A stretch of DNA of 64,000 nt from the NCBI GenBank assembly GCA_001776935.1, contig MFDN01000015.1, positions 30,130-94,129 of the forward strand, written 5' to 3'. The notes beneath the pieces are model-generated. The model saw only the letters and a program-made list of their open reading frames with translations. It was not told the DNA's origin and did not search any database. A program made the position numbers and the translations under genes. The DNA comes from Candidatus Daviesbacteria bacterium RIFCSPLOWO2_01_FULL_39_23 (lineage in GTDB: Bacteria; Patescibacteriota; Microgenomatia; Daviesbacterales; UBA10151). Each line of letters starts with the position of its first letter. Positions within the stretch are counted from its first letter, which is position 1. Shown here piece after piece: positions 26,848 through 29,808 of this stretch.

Positions 26848-29808
26848 TTAAGCATTTAACCAGTCATCATCATCTTTCGATATTTTATCAAGGTTTTCTT
26901 CGTCGCTGTAGCTGGCATTACTGATAATCAGTTCTTGTGGAATATCTGCCAAAAATCTGGATACTAAATTATTTGACCTGGTGCCAAAATATAACCTCTG
27001 TCTGGCGTAAGTTAAATATAGTTTCTCTTTAGCGCGGGTGATTCCGACATAGCAAAGTCTTCTTTCTTCCTCGAGTTCGCCAGTATCCAACATAGCGCGG
27101 GAGTGGGGGAATAAGCCTTCTTCCATGCCTACCATAAAAACAATCGGGAATTCCAGACCCTTAGCAGAGTGAAGAGTCATTAAAGTGACTGCGTCAGATT
27201 GCTGTTGACTGTTGGCTTTTCGCTTTCGGCCGGGAATATTGCCATTTTCAACCAGAGCAACATTTTCTAAAAATTCCACCAAATCAGGAAATTCTTCGGC
27301 TACAGACCGGAGCTCCTTAACGTTTTCTATACGCATTTTACCCTCTTCGGTGCCGTTATCAAGATATGCCAAATATCCTGTTTTGGTAAAAATTAAATCC
27401 AGTAAATCTAATGTTGTGTATTGATGAAGCTGCGTGGATATTTCTTCATAAAGTTCGGTAACTTTTACAAGCCTTCCTTTGCCTATTTTTTCAGCCCTTT
27501 TTAATGAAATCGAATCCTTAGGATTTTGCAATAAGCGCAGATATGCTAAAACGTCCTTTATTTCCTTTCTCTGGTAAAAGCTTACTCCGCCGACCAATTT
27601 ATATGGCATTCCGGCCTTTAAAAATTGTTCTTCTAGGGATCTTGATTGAGCATTGGTCCGGTAGAGAATGGCAAACTCAGACAGTTCTTTTATATCTTTG
27701 AGTTTGCTAATGGAGGATATGATAAAAAGAGCTTCTTCAACTTCATTTCTCACCTCAACTATTTCTATCTTTTCTCCGCCCTCTTTTTTGGTCCAAAGTT
27801 TTAAGACAGGATGGGATTTATTTTTGCAAATAATCGCATGGGCAGCGTCCAAAATATTTTGAGTGGAACGGTAATTTTGTTCAAGATTAAAAACCTTTAC
27901 CTGCGGATAATCTTTTTGAAAATTGACTATATTTCTAAAATCAGCTCCCCTGAAGGAATATATGGAATTATGTACAATGATTCCATTAGCAGAATAATTA
28001 TGCAGAGTATCTATATCCAGATCATAAACTTTTCCAACATAGTCCTCATGAGAAACTGAAATAACCTCATCAAGAATGATTCGATCTTTTTCTAAAATTC
28101 CAATTTCCATAGTTTCTCTAAGATGACTAATAGGGGTAAATAAAAACTTTTTATTATCAACAATGAAAGCAGAATGGTTAATAGTGAGTCCGCCGCCATC
28201 CAAAGCAATCTTTTCTGCTAGAGATAAAGCATTTTCATAACCCCAATGACAGGTTTCAATTCTCCATGTATCTCTATTGCCCGCTCTGGTAAAATGCCCC
28301 AGTTCATGAAGACTCTTCTGCAAGTTCTGGTTGGAAGTGTTAATTGAGACTCTGTGGCCACACCATGGACTTTTTAAAGTAGGCCGTTTATCGCTAAAAA
28401 GAGTGAAATGGACTAATTGTCTATCTGGAGCAATTTTACTTGCTACACCTTTAGGATGATGATGGGGATAGTCTTCAAACAGGTAGTAATCTTTGAAAAT
28501 TGTTTTTACCCGTTCTCTGGTATCTATAGAGTCAAAAAGTTTGTTAATTTGTTTTTGAGTAATAACCATATTACGGCCGCCGGTAGAGAAAACCATACTG
28601 GGGATTCCGTATTGAACTATAAACCACTGTTCCCAATAATTTGCTTCTGCTCTATCCTTGCAAACTTTTAAAATCCACATTTTATCTGCGCTCTCTTGAT
28701 TTGAACGCACCAATAAGCCAATTTGAGTTTTTCCTTTCTCTGGAGTTCTGAAACTTTTAGCAATTCCAATACGATAGCCTTTATCTTTTCGAAACATAAG
28801 GTATACATAGTAGCAATTTATTTTTAAGCTTAAACGGGCAAAGGTAATATGATTTGGGGTTGCTTTTAAAGTTTTACCGGATTTAGTTTTAATTGTGAAT
28901 AATTTACCTTGGAAATTAGAAATTCTTATTTTTTCAATCGGAACTTTGTGAATTCCTCCGCGACCAGCAGCAGCTATTACCAAATCGTTTCGTTTGAGGT
29001 CCTTAATAGATTTTAATCCAGTTGGAGTTGAAATTTTGGTATCAGGAGGGAGACATTGGCTGGCATCCCCTACAACACAAATATTTTGATGGCGTTTGGA
29101 TAAATATTTACTTATTAAATATTGGGCCGGATTGGTATCCTGGTATTCATCAATTAATATGTAGCGGAACTGGATCTGGTAGCGGGTTAAAACAGAGGGT
29201 TCGGTTTGAAAAAGCCGGATGGTTTTAAGAAGAAGGTCATCAAAATCCAAAGCCTGATTTTTCTCCAGGATTTTTTGATACTCAAGATAAATTTTAGCAA
29301 CAATTTCCTGGAAATATCCGCGGGCGTATTGAGGATATTCCAAAGAAGAAATCAGTTCGTTTTTAGCGCCGGAAATGGTGGAGCGGACAGAGTAGGGGGA
29401 AGTTTTTTGGGGGGAAATATTTAGATTACTCATGGCCTCTTTTACAGCATCCAAAGCATCTCCTTCATCATAAATTGCAAAACCGGGCGGCAGTCCCAGG
29501 ACTTTGCCGTCGCGGCGCAGTACCCTGGCACAAAAGCTATGGAACGTTCCCATAACCGGTTTGGCATTAAAATCCCCAAGCAGTTTCTTGATTCTTTCCA
29601 TCATTTCTCCGGCGGCTTTATTGGTGAATGTCAGGCACAGGATATTGTCAGGCGGAATACTCTTTTCAGATATTAAGTGAGCTACTTTATAAGTCAAGAC
29701 TCGTGTTTTGCCTGAGCCTGCTCCGGCCATAATCAGGGTTGGACCTTCAGTGGTCTGCACGGCTTTTTGTTGGTCTGGATTTAAATCATCTAGTAAAGAA
29801 GAGGGCAT
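26848..29808 (-). CDS. pcrA: UvrD/PcrA-family ATP-dependent DNA helicase interrupted by an intein
   Basis: Walker A AGAGSGKT. Motif III VGDxxQ is split from SIYSFRGA by a 363-aa insertion starting with Cys and ending ...VHN|S. Helicase motifs V/VI are present in the C-terminal extein. Confidence 0.85.
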   Translation of the reverse strand: MPSSLLDDLNPDQQKAVQTTEGPTLIMAGAGSGKTRVLTYKVAHLISEKSIPPDNILCLTFTNKAAGEMMERIKKLLGDFNAKPVMGTFHSFCARVLRRDGKVLGLPPGFAIYDEGDALDAVKEAMSNLNISPQKTSPYSVRSTISGAKNELISSLEYPQYARGYFQEIVAKIYLEYQKILEKNQALDFDDLLLKTIRLFQTEPSVLTRYQIQFRYILIDEYQDTNPAQYLISKYLSKRHQNICVVGDASQCLPPDTKISTPTGLKSIKDLKRNDLVIAAAGRGGIHKVPIEKIRISNFQGKLFTIKTKSGKTLKATPNHITFARLSLKINCYYVYLMFRKDKGYRIGIAKSFRTPEKGKTQIGLLVRSNQESADKMWILKVCKDRAEANYWEQWFIVQYGIPSMVFSTGGRNMVITQKQINKLFDSIDTRERVKTIFKDYYLFEDYPHHHPKGVASKIAPDRQLVHFTLFSDKRPTLKSPWCGHRVSINTSNQNLQKSLHELGHFTRAGNRDTWRIETCHWGYENALSLAEKIALDGGGLTINHSAFIVDNKKFLFTPISHLRETMEIGILEKDRIILDEVISVSHEDYVGKVYDLDIDTLHNYSANGIIVHNSIYSFRGADFRNIVNFQKDYPQVKVFNLEQNYRSTQNILDAAHAIICKNKSHPVLKLWTKKEGGEKIEIVEVRNEVEEALFIISSISKLKDIKELSEFAILYRTNAQSRSLEEQFLKAGMPYKLVGGVSFYQRKEIKDVLAYLRLLQNPKDSISLKRAEKIGKGRLVKVTELYEEISTQLHQYTTLDLLDLIFTKTGYLAYLDNGTEEGKMRIENVKELRSVAEEFPDLVEFLENVALVENGNIPGRKRKANSQQQSDAVTLMTLHSAKGLEFPIVFMVGMEEGLFPHSRAMLDTGELEEERRLCYVGITRAKEKLYLTYARQRLYFGTRSNNLVSRFLADIPQELIISNASYSDEENLDKISKDDDDWLNA
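27967..29055 (-). mobile_element. Intein (363 aa) inserted in helicase motif III of UvrD/PcrA
   Basis: N-terminal splicing block CLPPDTKISTP, C-terminal block ...GIIVHN followed by +1 Ser. The central region is large enough for an endonuclease domain, but no LAGLIDADG motif is seen. Confidence 0.75.

Follow-up and report, generated by a model that had tools for sequence, protein, structure and literature searches.

An intein in motif III of a Candidatus Daviesbacteria PcrA/UvrD helicase, with a putative GIY-YIG-like nuclease core in its central domain

The 64,000-nucleotide stretch of DNA analysed here (the window) contains a helicase gene that is interrupted, in frame, by an intein. This class-1 intein sits in motif III (GDxxQ/SIYxxRG, the slash marking the insertion point) of the PcrA/UvrD helicase from a member of Candidatus Daviesbacteria (CPR/Patescibacteria). 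The gene and its main parts are the following.

26848..29808, minus strand: gene of the precursor, a PcrA/UvrD SF1 helicase that contains the intein, 986 aa plus stop (ORF list, profile matches)
29056..29808, minus strand: N-extein, aa 1-251, ending with the first half of motif III, ...VVGDASQ (alignment to PcrA 1pjr up to the junction)
27967..29055, minus strand: class 1 intein, 363 aa, precursor aa 252-614 (Cys1 ... His362-Asn363, then Ser+1)
26848..27966, minus strand: C-extein, aa 615-986 plus stop (alignment)
27964-27966, minus strand: Ser+1 codon, start of the C-extein, followed by the second half of motif III (SIYSFRGA)

A first-pass annotation made from the letters alone had proposed a 363-aa intein at 27967-29055. 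These coordinates are exact, and the strand, which was left unstated, can now be added: read on the plus strand, 27967-29055 is riddled with stop codons, and the feature therefore lies on the minus strand. The open reading frame of the precursor runs uninterrupted through the intein. TIGR01073 (pcrA) matches the host protein with an E-value of 8.7e-219, the match being broken at residue 252, and the precursor also matches Pfam UvrD-helicase, UvrD_C and UvrD_C_2. The junctions read ...NICVVGDASQ / C...HN / SIYSFRGADF..., the segment from CLPPDTK to IIVHN corresponding to residues 252-614. The GC content of the intein is 35.4% versus 40.3% for the exteins, only a mild dip, and a tRNA scan of the whole window found none. 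In the sequence collection, 40 indexed blocks contain the identical 986-aa protein; 24 contigs were read, one of them a 130-kb groundwater metagenome contig.

The two ends of the intein form the splicing (Hint) domain, with these features.

28831..29055, minus strand: N-terminal part of the Hint domain, intein aa 1-75 (TIGR01445 over aa 1-69; beta strands in the model)
29053-29055, minus strand: Cys1 codon, first intein residue, precursor C252
28858-28860 and 28849-28851, minus strand: block B Thr66 and His69 (T66-P-N-H69, i.e. TxxH)
27967..28155, minus strand: C-terminal part of the Hint domain, intein aa 301-363 (TIGR01443, Pfam Intein_splicing; blocks F and G)
27970-27972 and 27967-27969, minus strand: His362 and Asn363, which belong with Asp345 and His352 to the residues of blocks F/G

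Three intein models score above their cut-offs: Pfam Intein_splicing (PF14890; 57.5 bits, gathering cut-off 35.8, E 1.8e-15), NCBIfam intein_Nterm (TIGR01445; 38.9, cut-off 24.5) and NCBIfam intein_Cterm (TIGR01443; 24.0, cut-off 15.6). The AlphaFold model of the intein (pLDDT 96.1, pTM 0.92) adopts the Hint fold, and Foldseek gives target-normalised TM-scores of 0.77-0.83 against DnaB and RecA mini-inteins and a Hedgehog Hint domain. The closest solved Hint domains are those of the Ssp and Npu DnaB mini-inteins (1mi8, 4o1r; target-normalised TM-score 0.81-0.83), which the C-terminal part of the Hint domain also matches by phmmer (E 4e-5), but these reside in another host protein and have no endonuclease insert. 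The profile and fold results thus confirm the earlier proposal of a canonical intein in motif III of UvrD/PcrA. Five positions, C1, T66, H69, H362 and N363, do not vary among 71 aligned sequences, and D345 hardly varies. The intein ends in ...VYDLDIDTLHNYSANGIIVHN, followed by S; at position +1, 88 of 88 same-site relatives have Ser or Cys, a set collected with a regular expression that itself permitted just S, T or C at this position. From canonical intein chemistry, the 986-aa precursor would self-splice: a thioester would be formed by Cys1 and attacked by Ser+1, after which cyclisation of Asn363, aided by His362 and the block B residues Thr66 and His69, would release the intein. The expected products are a 623-aa helicase with motif III whole and the free 363-aa intein.

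Removal of the intein in silico restores motif III, as had been anticipated. The spliced sequence aligns with PcrA of G. stearothermophilus (1pjr) with no gap across the junction (E 1.1e-170). An orthologue at a syntenic locus (P0168, 81% identical) has an empty site that reads NICVVGDASQSIYSFRGADFRNIV, encoded by GCCAACCGCCATAAAAATATCTGCGTGGTCGGCGATGCTTCCCAA^TCGATTTACTCATTTAGGGGAGCTGACTTCCGCAATATTGTTAAC, where ^ marks the insertion point, and the 24 residues around the site are identical in the empty-site orthologues. The existence of such syntenic empty sites agrees with the first description of the insert as a selfish element. Among the representatives of the 120 nearest orthologue (extein) clusters, from Candidatus Daviesbacteria, 117 are empty and 3 carry the intein. 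The intein is therefore sporadic and probably mobile. For one relative (P0018), identity to the window protein is 65% in the intein versus just 56-61% in the exteins. The same site is occupied in proteins named Chloroflexota, Anaerolineales, Acidobacteria and Fervidicella (Firmicutes), and in phages (phi92-like, SPO1-like and others). The 88 same-site relatives are very uniform in length (342-383 aa).

Between the two parts of the Hint domain lies an insert made of two sub-domains and a linker.

28576..28830, minus strand: sub-domain 1 of the insert, aa 76-160 of the intein, putative GIY-YIG-like nuclease core (model topology, invariant residues, Foldseek against BFVD)
28801-28803, 28771-28773 and 28765-28767, minus strand: codons of Tyr85, Arg95 and Gly97 of sub-domain 1
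28705-28707, 28693-28695 and 28630-28632, minus strand: codons of Arg117, Glu121 and Glu142 of sub-domain 1
28441..28575, minus strand: two-helix linker, intein aa 161-205 (model helices 167-176 and 179-189)
28462-28464, minus strand: His198 in the conserved YPHH motif of the linker (P197 and H198 nearly invariant)
28156..28440, minus strand: sub-domain 2 of the insert, aa 206-300 of the intein, an alpha/beta module containing the segment WCGHRVSINTSNQ...HELGH

The central domain is widespread, matching 912 cluster representatives (50%-identity clusters) at E<=1e-3. HMM scans against Pfam, NCBIfam and the PADLOC-independent set returned nothing for it; its sole PHROG match is weak (E 0.002) and concerns an unannotated family, and its profile found only a chance match (E 0.096) among PDB sequences. 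Conservation within the intein is highest in sub-domain 1, where mean identity reaches 45% versus 38-42% in the Hint parts and 27.5% in sub-domain 2, the least conserved, a ranking biased because the relatives were fetched with the central domain as query. This conservation argues against a degenerate endonuclease centre, one of the options first considered. The set Y, R-x-G, R-x3-E, W and E of sub-domain 1 is invariant, including in the phage, methyltransferase-intein and most divergent copies. Sub-domain 1 is found again in the intein of an unrelated host, a phage adenine methyltransferase; sub-domain 2 is missing from the S. suis methyltransferase intein that has sub-domain 1.

In the AlphaFold model, sub-domain 1 has the topology beta-beta-alpha-beta-alpha. 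Strands 82-89 and 93-100, joined by a 3-residue turn, form a hairpin in which the invariant Tyr85 is opposite the invariant Gly97, in a register read from the DSSP string and not from coordinates. A loop (aa 101-112), with Arg103 present in at least 90% of 31 members, precedes a helix (113-120) bearing the invariant Arg117; strand 125-132 and a helix (135-149) with Glu142 come next. This topology and the placement of these residues broadly agree with the published definition of the GIY-YIG core (PMC3045582). The position of the YIG tyrosine is held by the invariant Arg95, a departure from the family pattern, and the position four residues after the arginine is Glu121 instead of the usual Tyr/His; the usual Asn is absent. 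The active site would be built from a GIY-YIG-like hairpin, an "arginine helix" (Arg117, Glu121) and, after a linker strand, a "glutamate helix" (Glu142).

Comparisons of structures differed between databases. Foldseek searches of BFVD with sub-domain 1 retrieved GIY-YIG and Seg-like homing endonucleases of phages (E 3e-3; probability 0.99 for two Seg-like proteins), with many further proteins of these kinds at lower ranks. With the central model against the PDB, GIY-YIG structures were absent from the top 50. At the profile level, similarity to PF01541 or to known GIY-YIG members was non-significant in the Pfam, hhalign and rank tests. Of 31 members, a single one matched Pfam GIY-YIG (PF01541), with an E-value of 1.8. 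By hhalign, both T4 Seg/I-Tev and E. coli UvrC aligned in the predicted register (P 0.019 each), at a probability of just 2.5%, while reversed controls gave P 0.16 and 0.8. When the sub-domain 1 profile was run with hmmsearch against 1238 T4 six-frame ORFs, the GIY-YIG genes ranked 2, 8, 26, 49, 68, 281, 290, 1058, 1210, 1211, which is suggestive only and non-significant (Mann-Whitney p 0.06). A divergent alignment of sub-domain 1, used as query in a third search for homologues, yielded five fragments only and no bridge to annotated GIY-YIG proteins. Taken with moderate confidence, sub-domain 1 is most likely a divergent GIY-YIG-type nuclease.

A similar plan is that of I-TevI, I-TevII and SegA-G of T4-like phages, homing endonucleases whose hairpin (catalytic Tyr opposite Gly), Arg helix, linker strand and Glu helix resemble the elements modelled in sub-domain 1. 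In these enzymes, and presumably in the intein insert, the nuclease core is followed by a linker and then by a separate DNA-binding module. The differences are that I-TevI and the Seg enzymes are free-standing or intron-encoded, whereas the Daviesbacteria domain is in frame in an intein, has R-x-G for Y-I-G and Glu for His/Tyr at Arg+4, and has neither the conserved Asn nor DNA-binding motifs of the NUMOD type. The sole precedent that we found for a basic residue at the YIG tyrosine (here Arg95) is Hpy188I, a bona fide GIY-YIG enzyme in which this Tyr is naturally replaced by Lys73, which binds the scissile phosphate (PMC3045582). Hpy188I belongs to the type II restriction enzymes; it is dimeric, its Glu helix is domain-swapped, and the comparison made here is one of residue placement. 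A GIY-YIG homing nuclease is also linked to an intein, at conserved sites in genes for replication or repair, in the case of fractured genes, where a free-standing GIY-YIG or Vsr-like endonuclease gene lies between the halves of a split intein (Dassa et al. 2009, PMC2677866). There, however, the nuclease is separate and the intein split, whereas the Daviesbacteria domain is in frame and the intein contiguous.

Sub-domain 2 has the topology beta-beta-alpha-beta-alpha-beta in the AlphaFold model. Its fold matches are only weak, e.g. with the C-terminal domain of MotA (probability 0.54), and its role is probably to read the DNA target. Endonuclease ORFs placed antisense or out of frame occur in some phage inteins. 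A hidden ORF of this sort was rejected here: the ORFs overlapping the intein are all <=84 aa, and the longest two have no Pfam match.

The central insert could alternatively be a DNA-binding or regulatory domain without nuclease activity, in a domesticated intein that has lost homing and benefits its host, e.g. by conditional splicing controlling the helicase. The HMMs indeed detect no nuclease family, and over distant lineages the conservation of the intein (~40-45%) is near that of its essential host (45-50%), with the uniform length mentioned above. We nevertheless regard this reading as unlikely. With just 3 occupied clusters among the 120 nearest, the distribution is that of a mobile element and not of a fixed beneficial one, the invariant Tyr/Arg/Glu set is typical of a catalytic site, and both the recurrence of sub-domain 1 in the unrelated methyltransferase host and the excess of intein over extein identity in P0018 speak against domestication.

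LAGLIDADG enzymes are the usual endonucleases of inteins, and the insert might be a strongly diverged or degenerate one that has lost its signature helices. Like them it has two alpha/beta sub-domains; the meganucleases I-PanMI, I-OnuI, I-SmaMI and I-LtrI top the Foldseek PDB list for the central model, and the best E-values of the whole-intein model (1e-7 to 1e-4) belong to the full-length LAGLIDADG inteins PI-SceI, PI-PfuI, PI-TkoII and TliVMA, homing elements in which an in-frame endonuclease insert likewise splits the Hint domain. However, in the comparison with these inteins the Hint part alone superposes (query-normalised TM-score ~0.28). The PDB matches of the central model are non-significant (E 0.02-0.3, probability <=0.2, TM ~0.2, rmsd ~18 A), and their number is inflated by the many I-OnuI variants in the PDB. 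The first reading had seen no LAGLIDADG motif, which holds: unlike PI-SceI-type inteins, the Daviesbacteria insert has no such motif and no family match at E<=1, and PF14528, PF00961 and PF03161 gave no match at E<=10 in 31 of 31 members. In a LAGLIDADG enzyme two interface helices (intein blocks C and E) each head a half of alpha-beta-beta-alpha-beta-beta-alpha topology. Here both sub-domains open with a strand, not with an interface helix, sub-domain 1 has three strands versus four, and the conserved positions are Tyr, Arg and Glu on a hairpin and two helices instead of acidic residues at the ends of helices. A LAGLIDADG origin is thus quite improbable.

It had also been suggested that the segment WCGHRVSINTSNQ...HELGH is HNH-like (a beta-beta-alpha-metal nuclease). 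Nucleases of this type carry a conserved His...Asn...His/Asn set on their metal finger. The model does show a local beta-beta-alpha arrangement there (strands 214-222 and 233-240, helix 243-251), with a nearly invariant His234. But no HNH family matches at E<=10, HELGH and the cysteine are unconserved with no conserved Asn between them, the fold matches include no HNH, colicin or Cas9-HNH structure, and the segment falls in the variable sub-domain 2, which the methyltransferase intein does without. The HNH assignment is therefore very hard to uphold. The accompanying idea of an endonuclease of another class was right in spirit, the best match being GIY-YIG-like, although its HNH candidate fails.

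PcrA motif III couples ATP hydrolysis to unwinding, as known from PcrA mutagenesis work. A pseudogene, or a permanent Hint-like insertion (BIL-type or accessory domain) kept in the mature helicase, has in its favour that some relatives, e.g. Fervidicella, are broken within the intein, but is scarcely credible for an insert that interrupts this motif with C1, TxxH, D345, H362, N363 and Ser+1 all intact and invariant, in an unbroken reading frame read identically on 24 contigs.

Taken together, the observations are best explained, with good confidence, by a class-1 self-splicing intein with a two-part nuclease-like insert, homing into motif III. Acting together, the two central sub-domains would cleave pcrA/uvrD alleles that lack the intein, at the conserved codons of motif III, and the intein would then be copied into the cut allele by recombinational repair. 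Such homing would account for the patchy presence in close relatives and the spread over phyla and phages. For the broader proposal that goes with it, we see even chances: the central module would represent a large uncurated family, with no Pfam, NCBIfam or PDB sequence match, of in-frame intein-borne homing nucleases derived from GIY-YIG with an altered active site (Y...R-x-G...R-x3-E...E), a further intein endonuclease class beside LAGLIDADG and HNH that is reused in at least two unrelated hosts, UvrD-like helicases and a phage adenine methyltransferase.

The intein as such is of an ordinary kind. Inteins of UvrD/PcrA/Rep helicases have been surveyed (Novikova et al. 2016, PMC4760082), and a same-site element is annotated in phage genomes. 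In phi92-like coliphages such as phage PaulScherrer (MZ501100), the annotated intein occupies the same insertion point, VVGDEFQ / C...SHN / CIYQFRG; it has 347 aa versus 363 aa in the CPR-bacterium copy, and its central domain is homologous, with ~32% identity. Neither the text of the Novikova survey nor the phage GenBank annotation gives this domain a nuclease class. In the intein reviews and surveys consulted, the in-frame endonucleases are LAGLIDADG and HNH, and no in-frame GIY-YIG intein is listed. GIY-YIG enzymes appear in these papers only as free-standing genes beside split inteins, this family being "not known to be present in inteins" (PMC2677866). If sub-domain 1 is truly a GIY-YIG-type nuclease, it would add an intein endonuclease class, support repeated acquisition of free-standing homing nucleases by inteins, and offer a compact nuclease whose catalytic residues are unusual, with Arg in place of Tyr and Glu in place of His/Tyr. 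The presence of homologues in cultured phi92-like E. coli phages makes the domain open to experiment. For the CPR bacteria, in which the routes of gene exchange are poorly known, the sequences suggest that this intein may be an active mobile element.

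By its sequence, the host protein is assigned to the PcrA/UvrD-type SF1 helicases: it matches the TIGR01073 pcrA model (E 8.7e-219) and contains UvrD-helicase and UvrD_C Pfam domains, the N-terminal match ending at residue 252. The gene and its insertion are located as follows.

26848..29808, minus strand: open reading frame of the PcrA/UvrD helicase precursor, 986 aa (ORF list)
27967-29055, minus strand: intein CLPPDTK...IIVHN, 363 aa, precursor residues 252-614 (translation of the ORF)

The intein is preceded by ...NICVVGDASQ and followed by SIYSFRGADF.... Since residues 252-614 are exactly 363 aa and correspond to window positions 27967-29055 with these flanks, the coordinates and junction sequences proposed by the first-pass annotation are correct. 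The plus-strand reading of 27967-29055 is interrupted by stops throughout. The G+C content of the intein is 35.4%, versus 40.3% for the exteins and 39.1% for the whole window, which is mildly consistent with a foreign origin. The gene directly downstream of the helicase (26149-26847, minus strand) encodes a 232-aa G5- and 3D-domain protein similar to cell-wall-binding or resuscitation-promoting-factor proteins. Its start abuts the helicase stop codon (26848) with zero spacer, and this gene order is also present at an intein-free orthologous locus (L007). No tRNA or tmRNA genes were found by ARAGORN in the whole 64-kb window (1-64000).

The insert shows, in its sequence and predicted structure, the features of a class-1 intein in its profile scores, matches to known inteins, fold and splicing residues. 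It exceeds the cut-offs of Pfam Intein_splicing (57.5 bits, cut-off 35.8), of TIGR01445 for the N-terminal splicing region (38.9, cut-off 24.5) and of TIGR01443 for the C-terminal one (24.0, cut-off 15.6). With phmmer against PDB sequences, DnaB, RadA, CDC21 and RecA inteins match the two ends of the insert only. Both ends form the Hint domain in the AlphaFold2 model of the whole intein (input alignment of 71 sequences, pLDDT 96.1, pTM 0.92), and Foldseek gives target-normalised TM-scores of 0.77-0.83 with the Ssp and Npu DnaB and Mtu RecA mini-inteins and the Hedgehog Hint domain. No variation is seen across the family at C1, T66 and H69 (TxxH of block B), H362 and N363, and almost none at D345 (block F). 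At +1, all 88 same-site relatives found have Ser or Cys; the search pattern that retrieved them admitted only Ser, Thr and Cys there.

Excision in silico yields a 623-aa product that aligns with PcrA of G. stearothermophilus (1pjr, E 1.1e-170) without a gap at the junction ('nicvvgdasqsiysfrgadfrniv' with 'nicavgdadqsiyrwrgadiqnil'), restoring motif III exactly. A natural empty allele, NICVVGDASQSIYSFRGADFRNIV, is found in orthologue P0168 (81% identical). P0168 has the gene neighbourhood of the window's helicase (downstream a G5/3D-domain gene, then a SurA_N-like one), and the occupied and empty alleles share 67 of 90 nt around the insertion site. The intein is a presence/absence polymorphism at a syntenic site. 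Intact splicing residues, the Hint fold and the exact restoration of motif III all support the initial reading of the insertion as an intein.

For the central insert, searches of Pfam, NCBIfam and PDB sequences (by profile) gave no meaningful curated family. Modelled alone, it reaches a pLDDT of 90.3, and both this model and that of the whole intein contain two sub-domains linked by two helices (intein numbering, Cys1 to Asn363).

Sub-domain 1 (76-160): strand 82-89, strand 93-100, helix 113-120, strand 125-132, helix 135-149
Sub-domain 2 (206-300): strand 214-222, strand 233-240, helix 243-251, strand 264-270, helix 273-286, strand 291-299

Among 90 same-site inteins, relatives that were retrieved with the central domain, sub-domain 1 is best conserved (mean identity to the window 45%, versus 38% and 42% for the Hint parts), and sub-domain 2 is the least conserved intein region (27.5%). 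Sub-domain 1 is present and sub-domain 2 absent in the adenine methyltransferase intein of an S. suis prophage (…HEP/C…THN/CLYGWK, slashes marking splice junctions). Sub-domain 1 is thus portable and constrained, and sub-domain 2 variable. By the usual division of such parts, the former would be catalytic and the latter target-recognising. In Streptococcus phage phi-SsuSSJ28_rum (locus L006, 1373-3484), the adenine-specific methyltransferase is a ParB_N plus N6_N4_Mtase protein with a shorter intein (…HEP/CQPAGT…GIVTHN/CLYGWK) that has sub-domain 1 and no sub-domain 2, and the record is without intein annotation.

Tyr85, Met87, Arg95, Gly97, Arg117, Glu121, Trp127, Ala138, Glu142, Gly150 and Pro152 are invariant even between the members that diverge most, those from CPR, phages and the methyltransferase intein. 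As judged from alignment and models, the insert is conserved and folded, with a Tyr/Arg/Glu signature. The GIY-YIG core comprises a hairpin with the GIY Tyr (the general base) and the YIG Gly, a position that must be Gly to avoid a clash with this Tyr, then an 'arginine helix' in which an invariant Arg is followed one turn on by Tyr/His, a 'linker strand', and a 'glutamate helix' whose Glu binds metal (Sokolowska et al., PMC3045582). In the model, the elements of sub-domain 1 correspond one to one with this core. Going by the DSSP string, the hairpin register would set Tyr85 (strand 1) against Gly97 (strand 2); the basic Arg95 takes the YIG-Tyr position, where Hpy188I has Lys (PMC3045582); Arg117 is on the helix ahead of strand 125-132, and the last helix has Glu142. 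In a Foldseek search of the insert against BFVD, the first three matches are viral proteins with the same domain, the next are a T4-like phage 'GIY-YIG domain-containing protein' and a 'homing endonuclease' (E 3e-3, probability 0.99), and about 10 more GIY-YIG or Seg-like entries come after those. With hhalign, the family profile aligned to nine T4 Seg/I-Tev proteins and separately to E. coli UvrC with P 0.019 each (reversed controls 0.16 and 0.8), at a probability of only 2.5%, pairing Tyr85 with the GIY Tyr, Arg95-Ile-Gly97 with Y-[IV]-G and Glu142 with the catalytic Glu. Against this fold and register support stand weak sequence scores, with Pfam GIY-YIG matching 1/31 members only (E 1.8) and a rank test of sub-domain 1 versus all T4 ORFs that was not significant (p 0.06), and two deviations, Glu instead of Tyr/His at Arg+4 and a missing conserved Asn. 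GIY-YIG structures are absent from the top 50 Foldseek matches in the PDB, which gave only insignificant LAGLIDADG matches (E>=0.02, probability <=0.2, TM ~0.2). Weighing these, we lean towards the view that sub-domain 1 works like a GIY-YIG nuclease, and class it as GIY-YIG-like rather than as a demonstrated member.

The first-pass annotation had suggested a possibly degenerate endonuclease, which the conservation of sub-domain 1 over the 90 same-site inteins does not support. Its suggestion that the …HELGH segment could be HNH-like is not supported either: no HNH families or folds matched, neither HELGH nor the Cys is conserved, and the segment falls within sub-domain 2, the variable one. 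No nuclease gene hidden in antisense or out of frame, such as some phage inteins have, is present at the window intein.

A 130-kb groundwater metagenome contig (PRJNA268031) matches the window, and the closest homologues of the exteins bear the names Candidatus Daviesbacteria, Microgenomates or Patescibacteria. Motif III is empty in 117 of the 120 nearest cluster representatives (identity 71-100%), 89 of these 117 having exactly GDASQSIYSFR; the intein is carried only by P0205, P0225 and the protein of the window itself. Identity within Daviesbacteria is 68-73% for the inteins and 78-84% for the exteins, and in the more distant P0018 the intein is 65% identical, above its exteins (56-61%). The central 225 aa, used as query in an exhaustive HMMER scan, retrieved 912 cluster representatives at E<=1e-3, and an intact 342-383-aa C...HN insert occupies the same motif III position (GDxxQ/[SC][IVL]Y.[FW]R of UvrD-like helicases) in 88 of the best 149 proteins, query excluded. 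Named hosts of these relatives include Chloroflexota, Anaerolineales, Acidobacteria and Fervidicella. The domain also occurs in cultured phages, namely phi92-like coliphages, SPO1/CampHawk-like Bacillus phages and Streptococcus suis prophages, and some phi92-like records annotate an 'intein-containing UvrD/Rep family helicase precursor' (VVGDEFQ/C...SHN/CIYQFRG). As read from these sequences, the patchy, cross-phylum and phage-borne occurrence is the pattern that a homing element produces.

Four unannotated Campylobacter-labelled phage records of about 146.4 kb each (MG065639, MG065645, MG065656, MG065689) contain the phi92-like helicase intein, with the same identity to the query (32.2%) as many listed E. 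coli phi92-like phages. The Campylobacter label may be mistaken, or the phages may be close kin of the coliphages. In Fervidicella metallireducens AeB (AZQP01000008.1, locus L008), the intein-containing UvrD gene is split into two ORFs (3501-5174 and 5171-6793, 4-nt overlap), the first stopping inside the intein just ahead of the C-terminal Hint part (…EKSFDYMHLHI, stop). This break is a frameshift, from either a real pseudogene or a draft-genome sequencing error. The first-search matches P0003, P0010 and P0016 likewise terminate abnormally within the intein.

The 76% identical Daviesbacteria orthologue P0280 has an empty motif III, but its Walker A P-loop contains another intein (AGAGSGK/CVTGDT...NHN/TRVLTY), of a different kind, with a Pfam LAGLIDADG_3 domain inside. 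The same helicase has therefore been invaded at two sites by inteins of differing nuclease types. Helicases with multiple inteins were also seen, the giant UvrD-like proteins P0089 (2433 aa) and P0127 (2308 aa) having several Hint/intein segments; P0127 combines a LAGLIDADG intein (near residues 339-710) with a window-type intein at 1127-1474 and a further Hint start near 1527.

UvrD inteins have been surveyed by Novikova et al. (16 cases spanning Acidobacteria, Actinobacteria, Deinococcus-Thermus, Firmicutes and Proteobacteria; PMC4760082) and appear in a 2018 review, and the same-site phage intein is already annotated in GenBank, so that the window element itself is known in kind. GIY-YIG nucleases were 'not known to be present in inteins' according to Dassa et al. 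2009 (PMC2677866). The nuclease types given in a 2025 survey are LAGLIDADG and HNH in frame, LAGLIDADG and VSR-like in antisense, and EndoVII-like out of frame; in-frame GIY-YIG is not among them. A phrase search of the literature, of incomplete coverage and thus giving absence of evidence only, found no report of GIY-YIG inteins, and the nuclease class is the part for which no precedent was found in the literature searched. From sequence and models, this is an intein ordinary in kind that carries an uncharacterised, probably GIY-YIG-like nuclease module.

The precursor would self-splice through a Cys1 thioester, transesterification to Ser+1 and cyclisation of Asn363, releasing the 363-aa protein from an active helicase of 623 aa. 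The freed protein would use sub-domain 2, possibly with the Hint surface, to bind empty alleles at their motif III coding sequence and sub-domain 1 to cut it, and repair templated by the occupied allele would copy the intein in. Phages with the same element would be plausible vectors.
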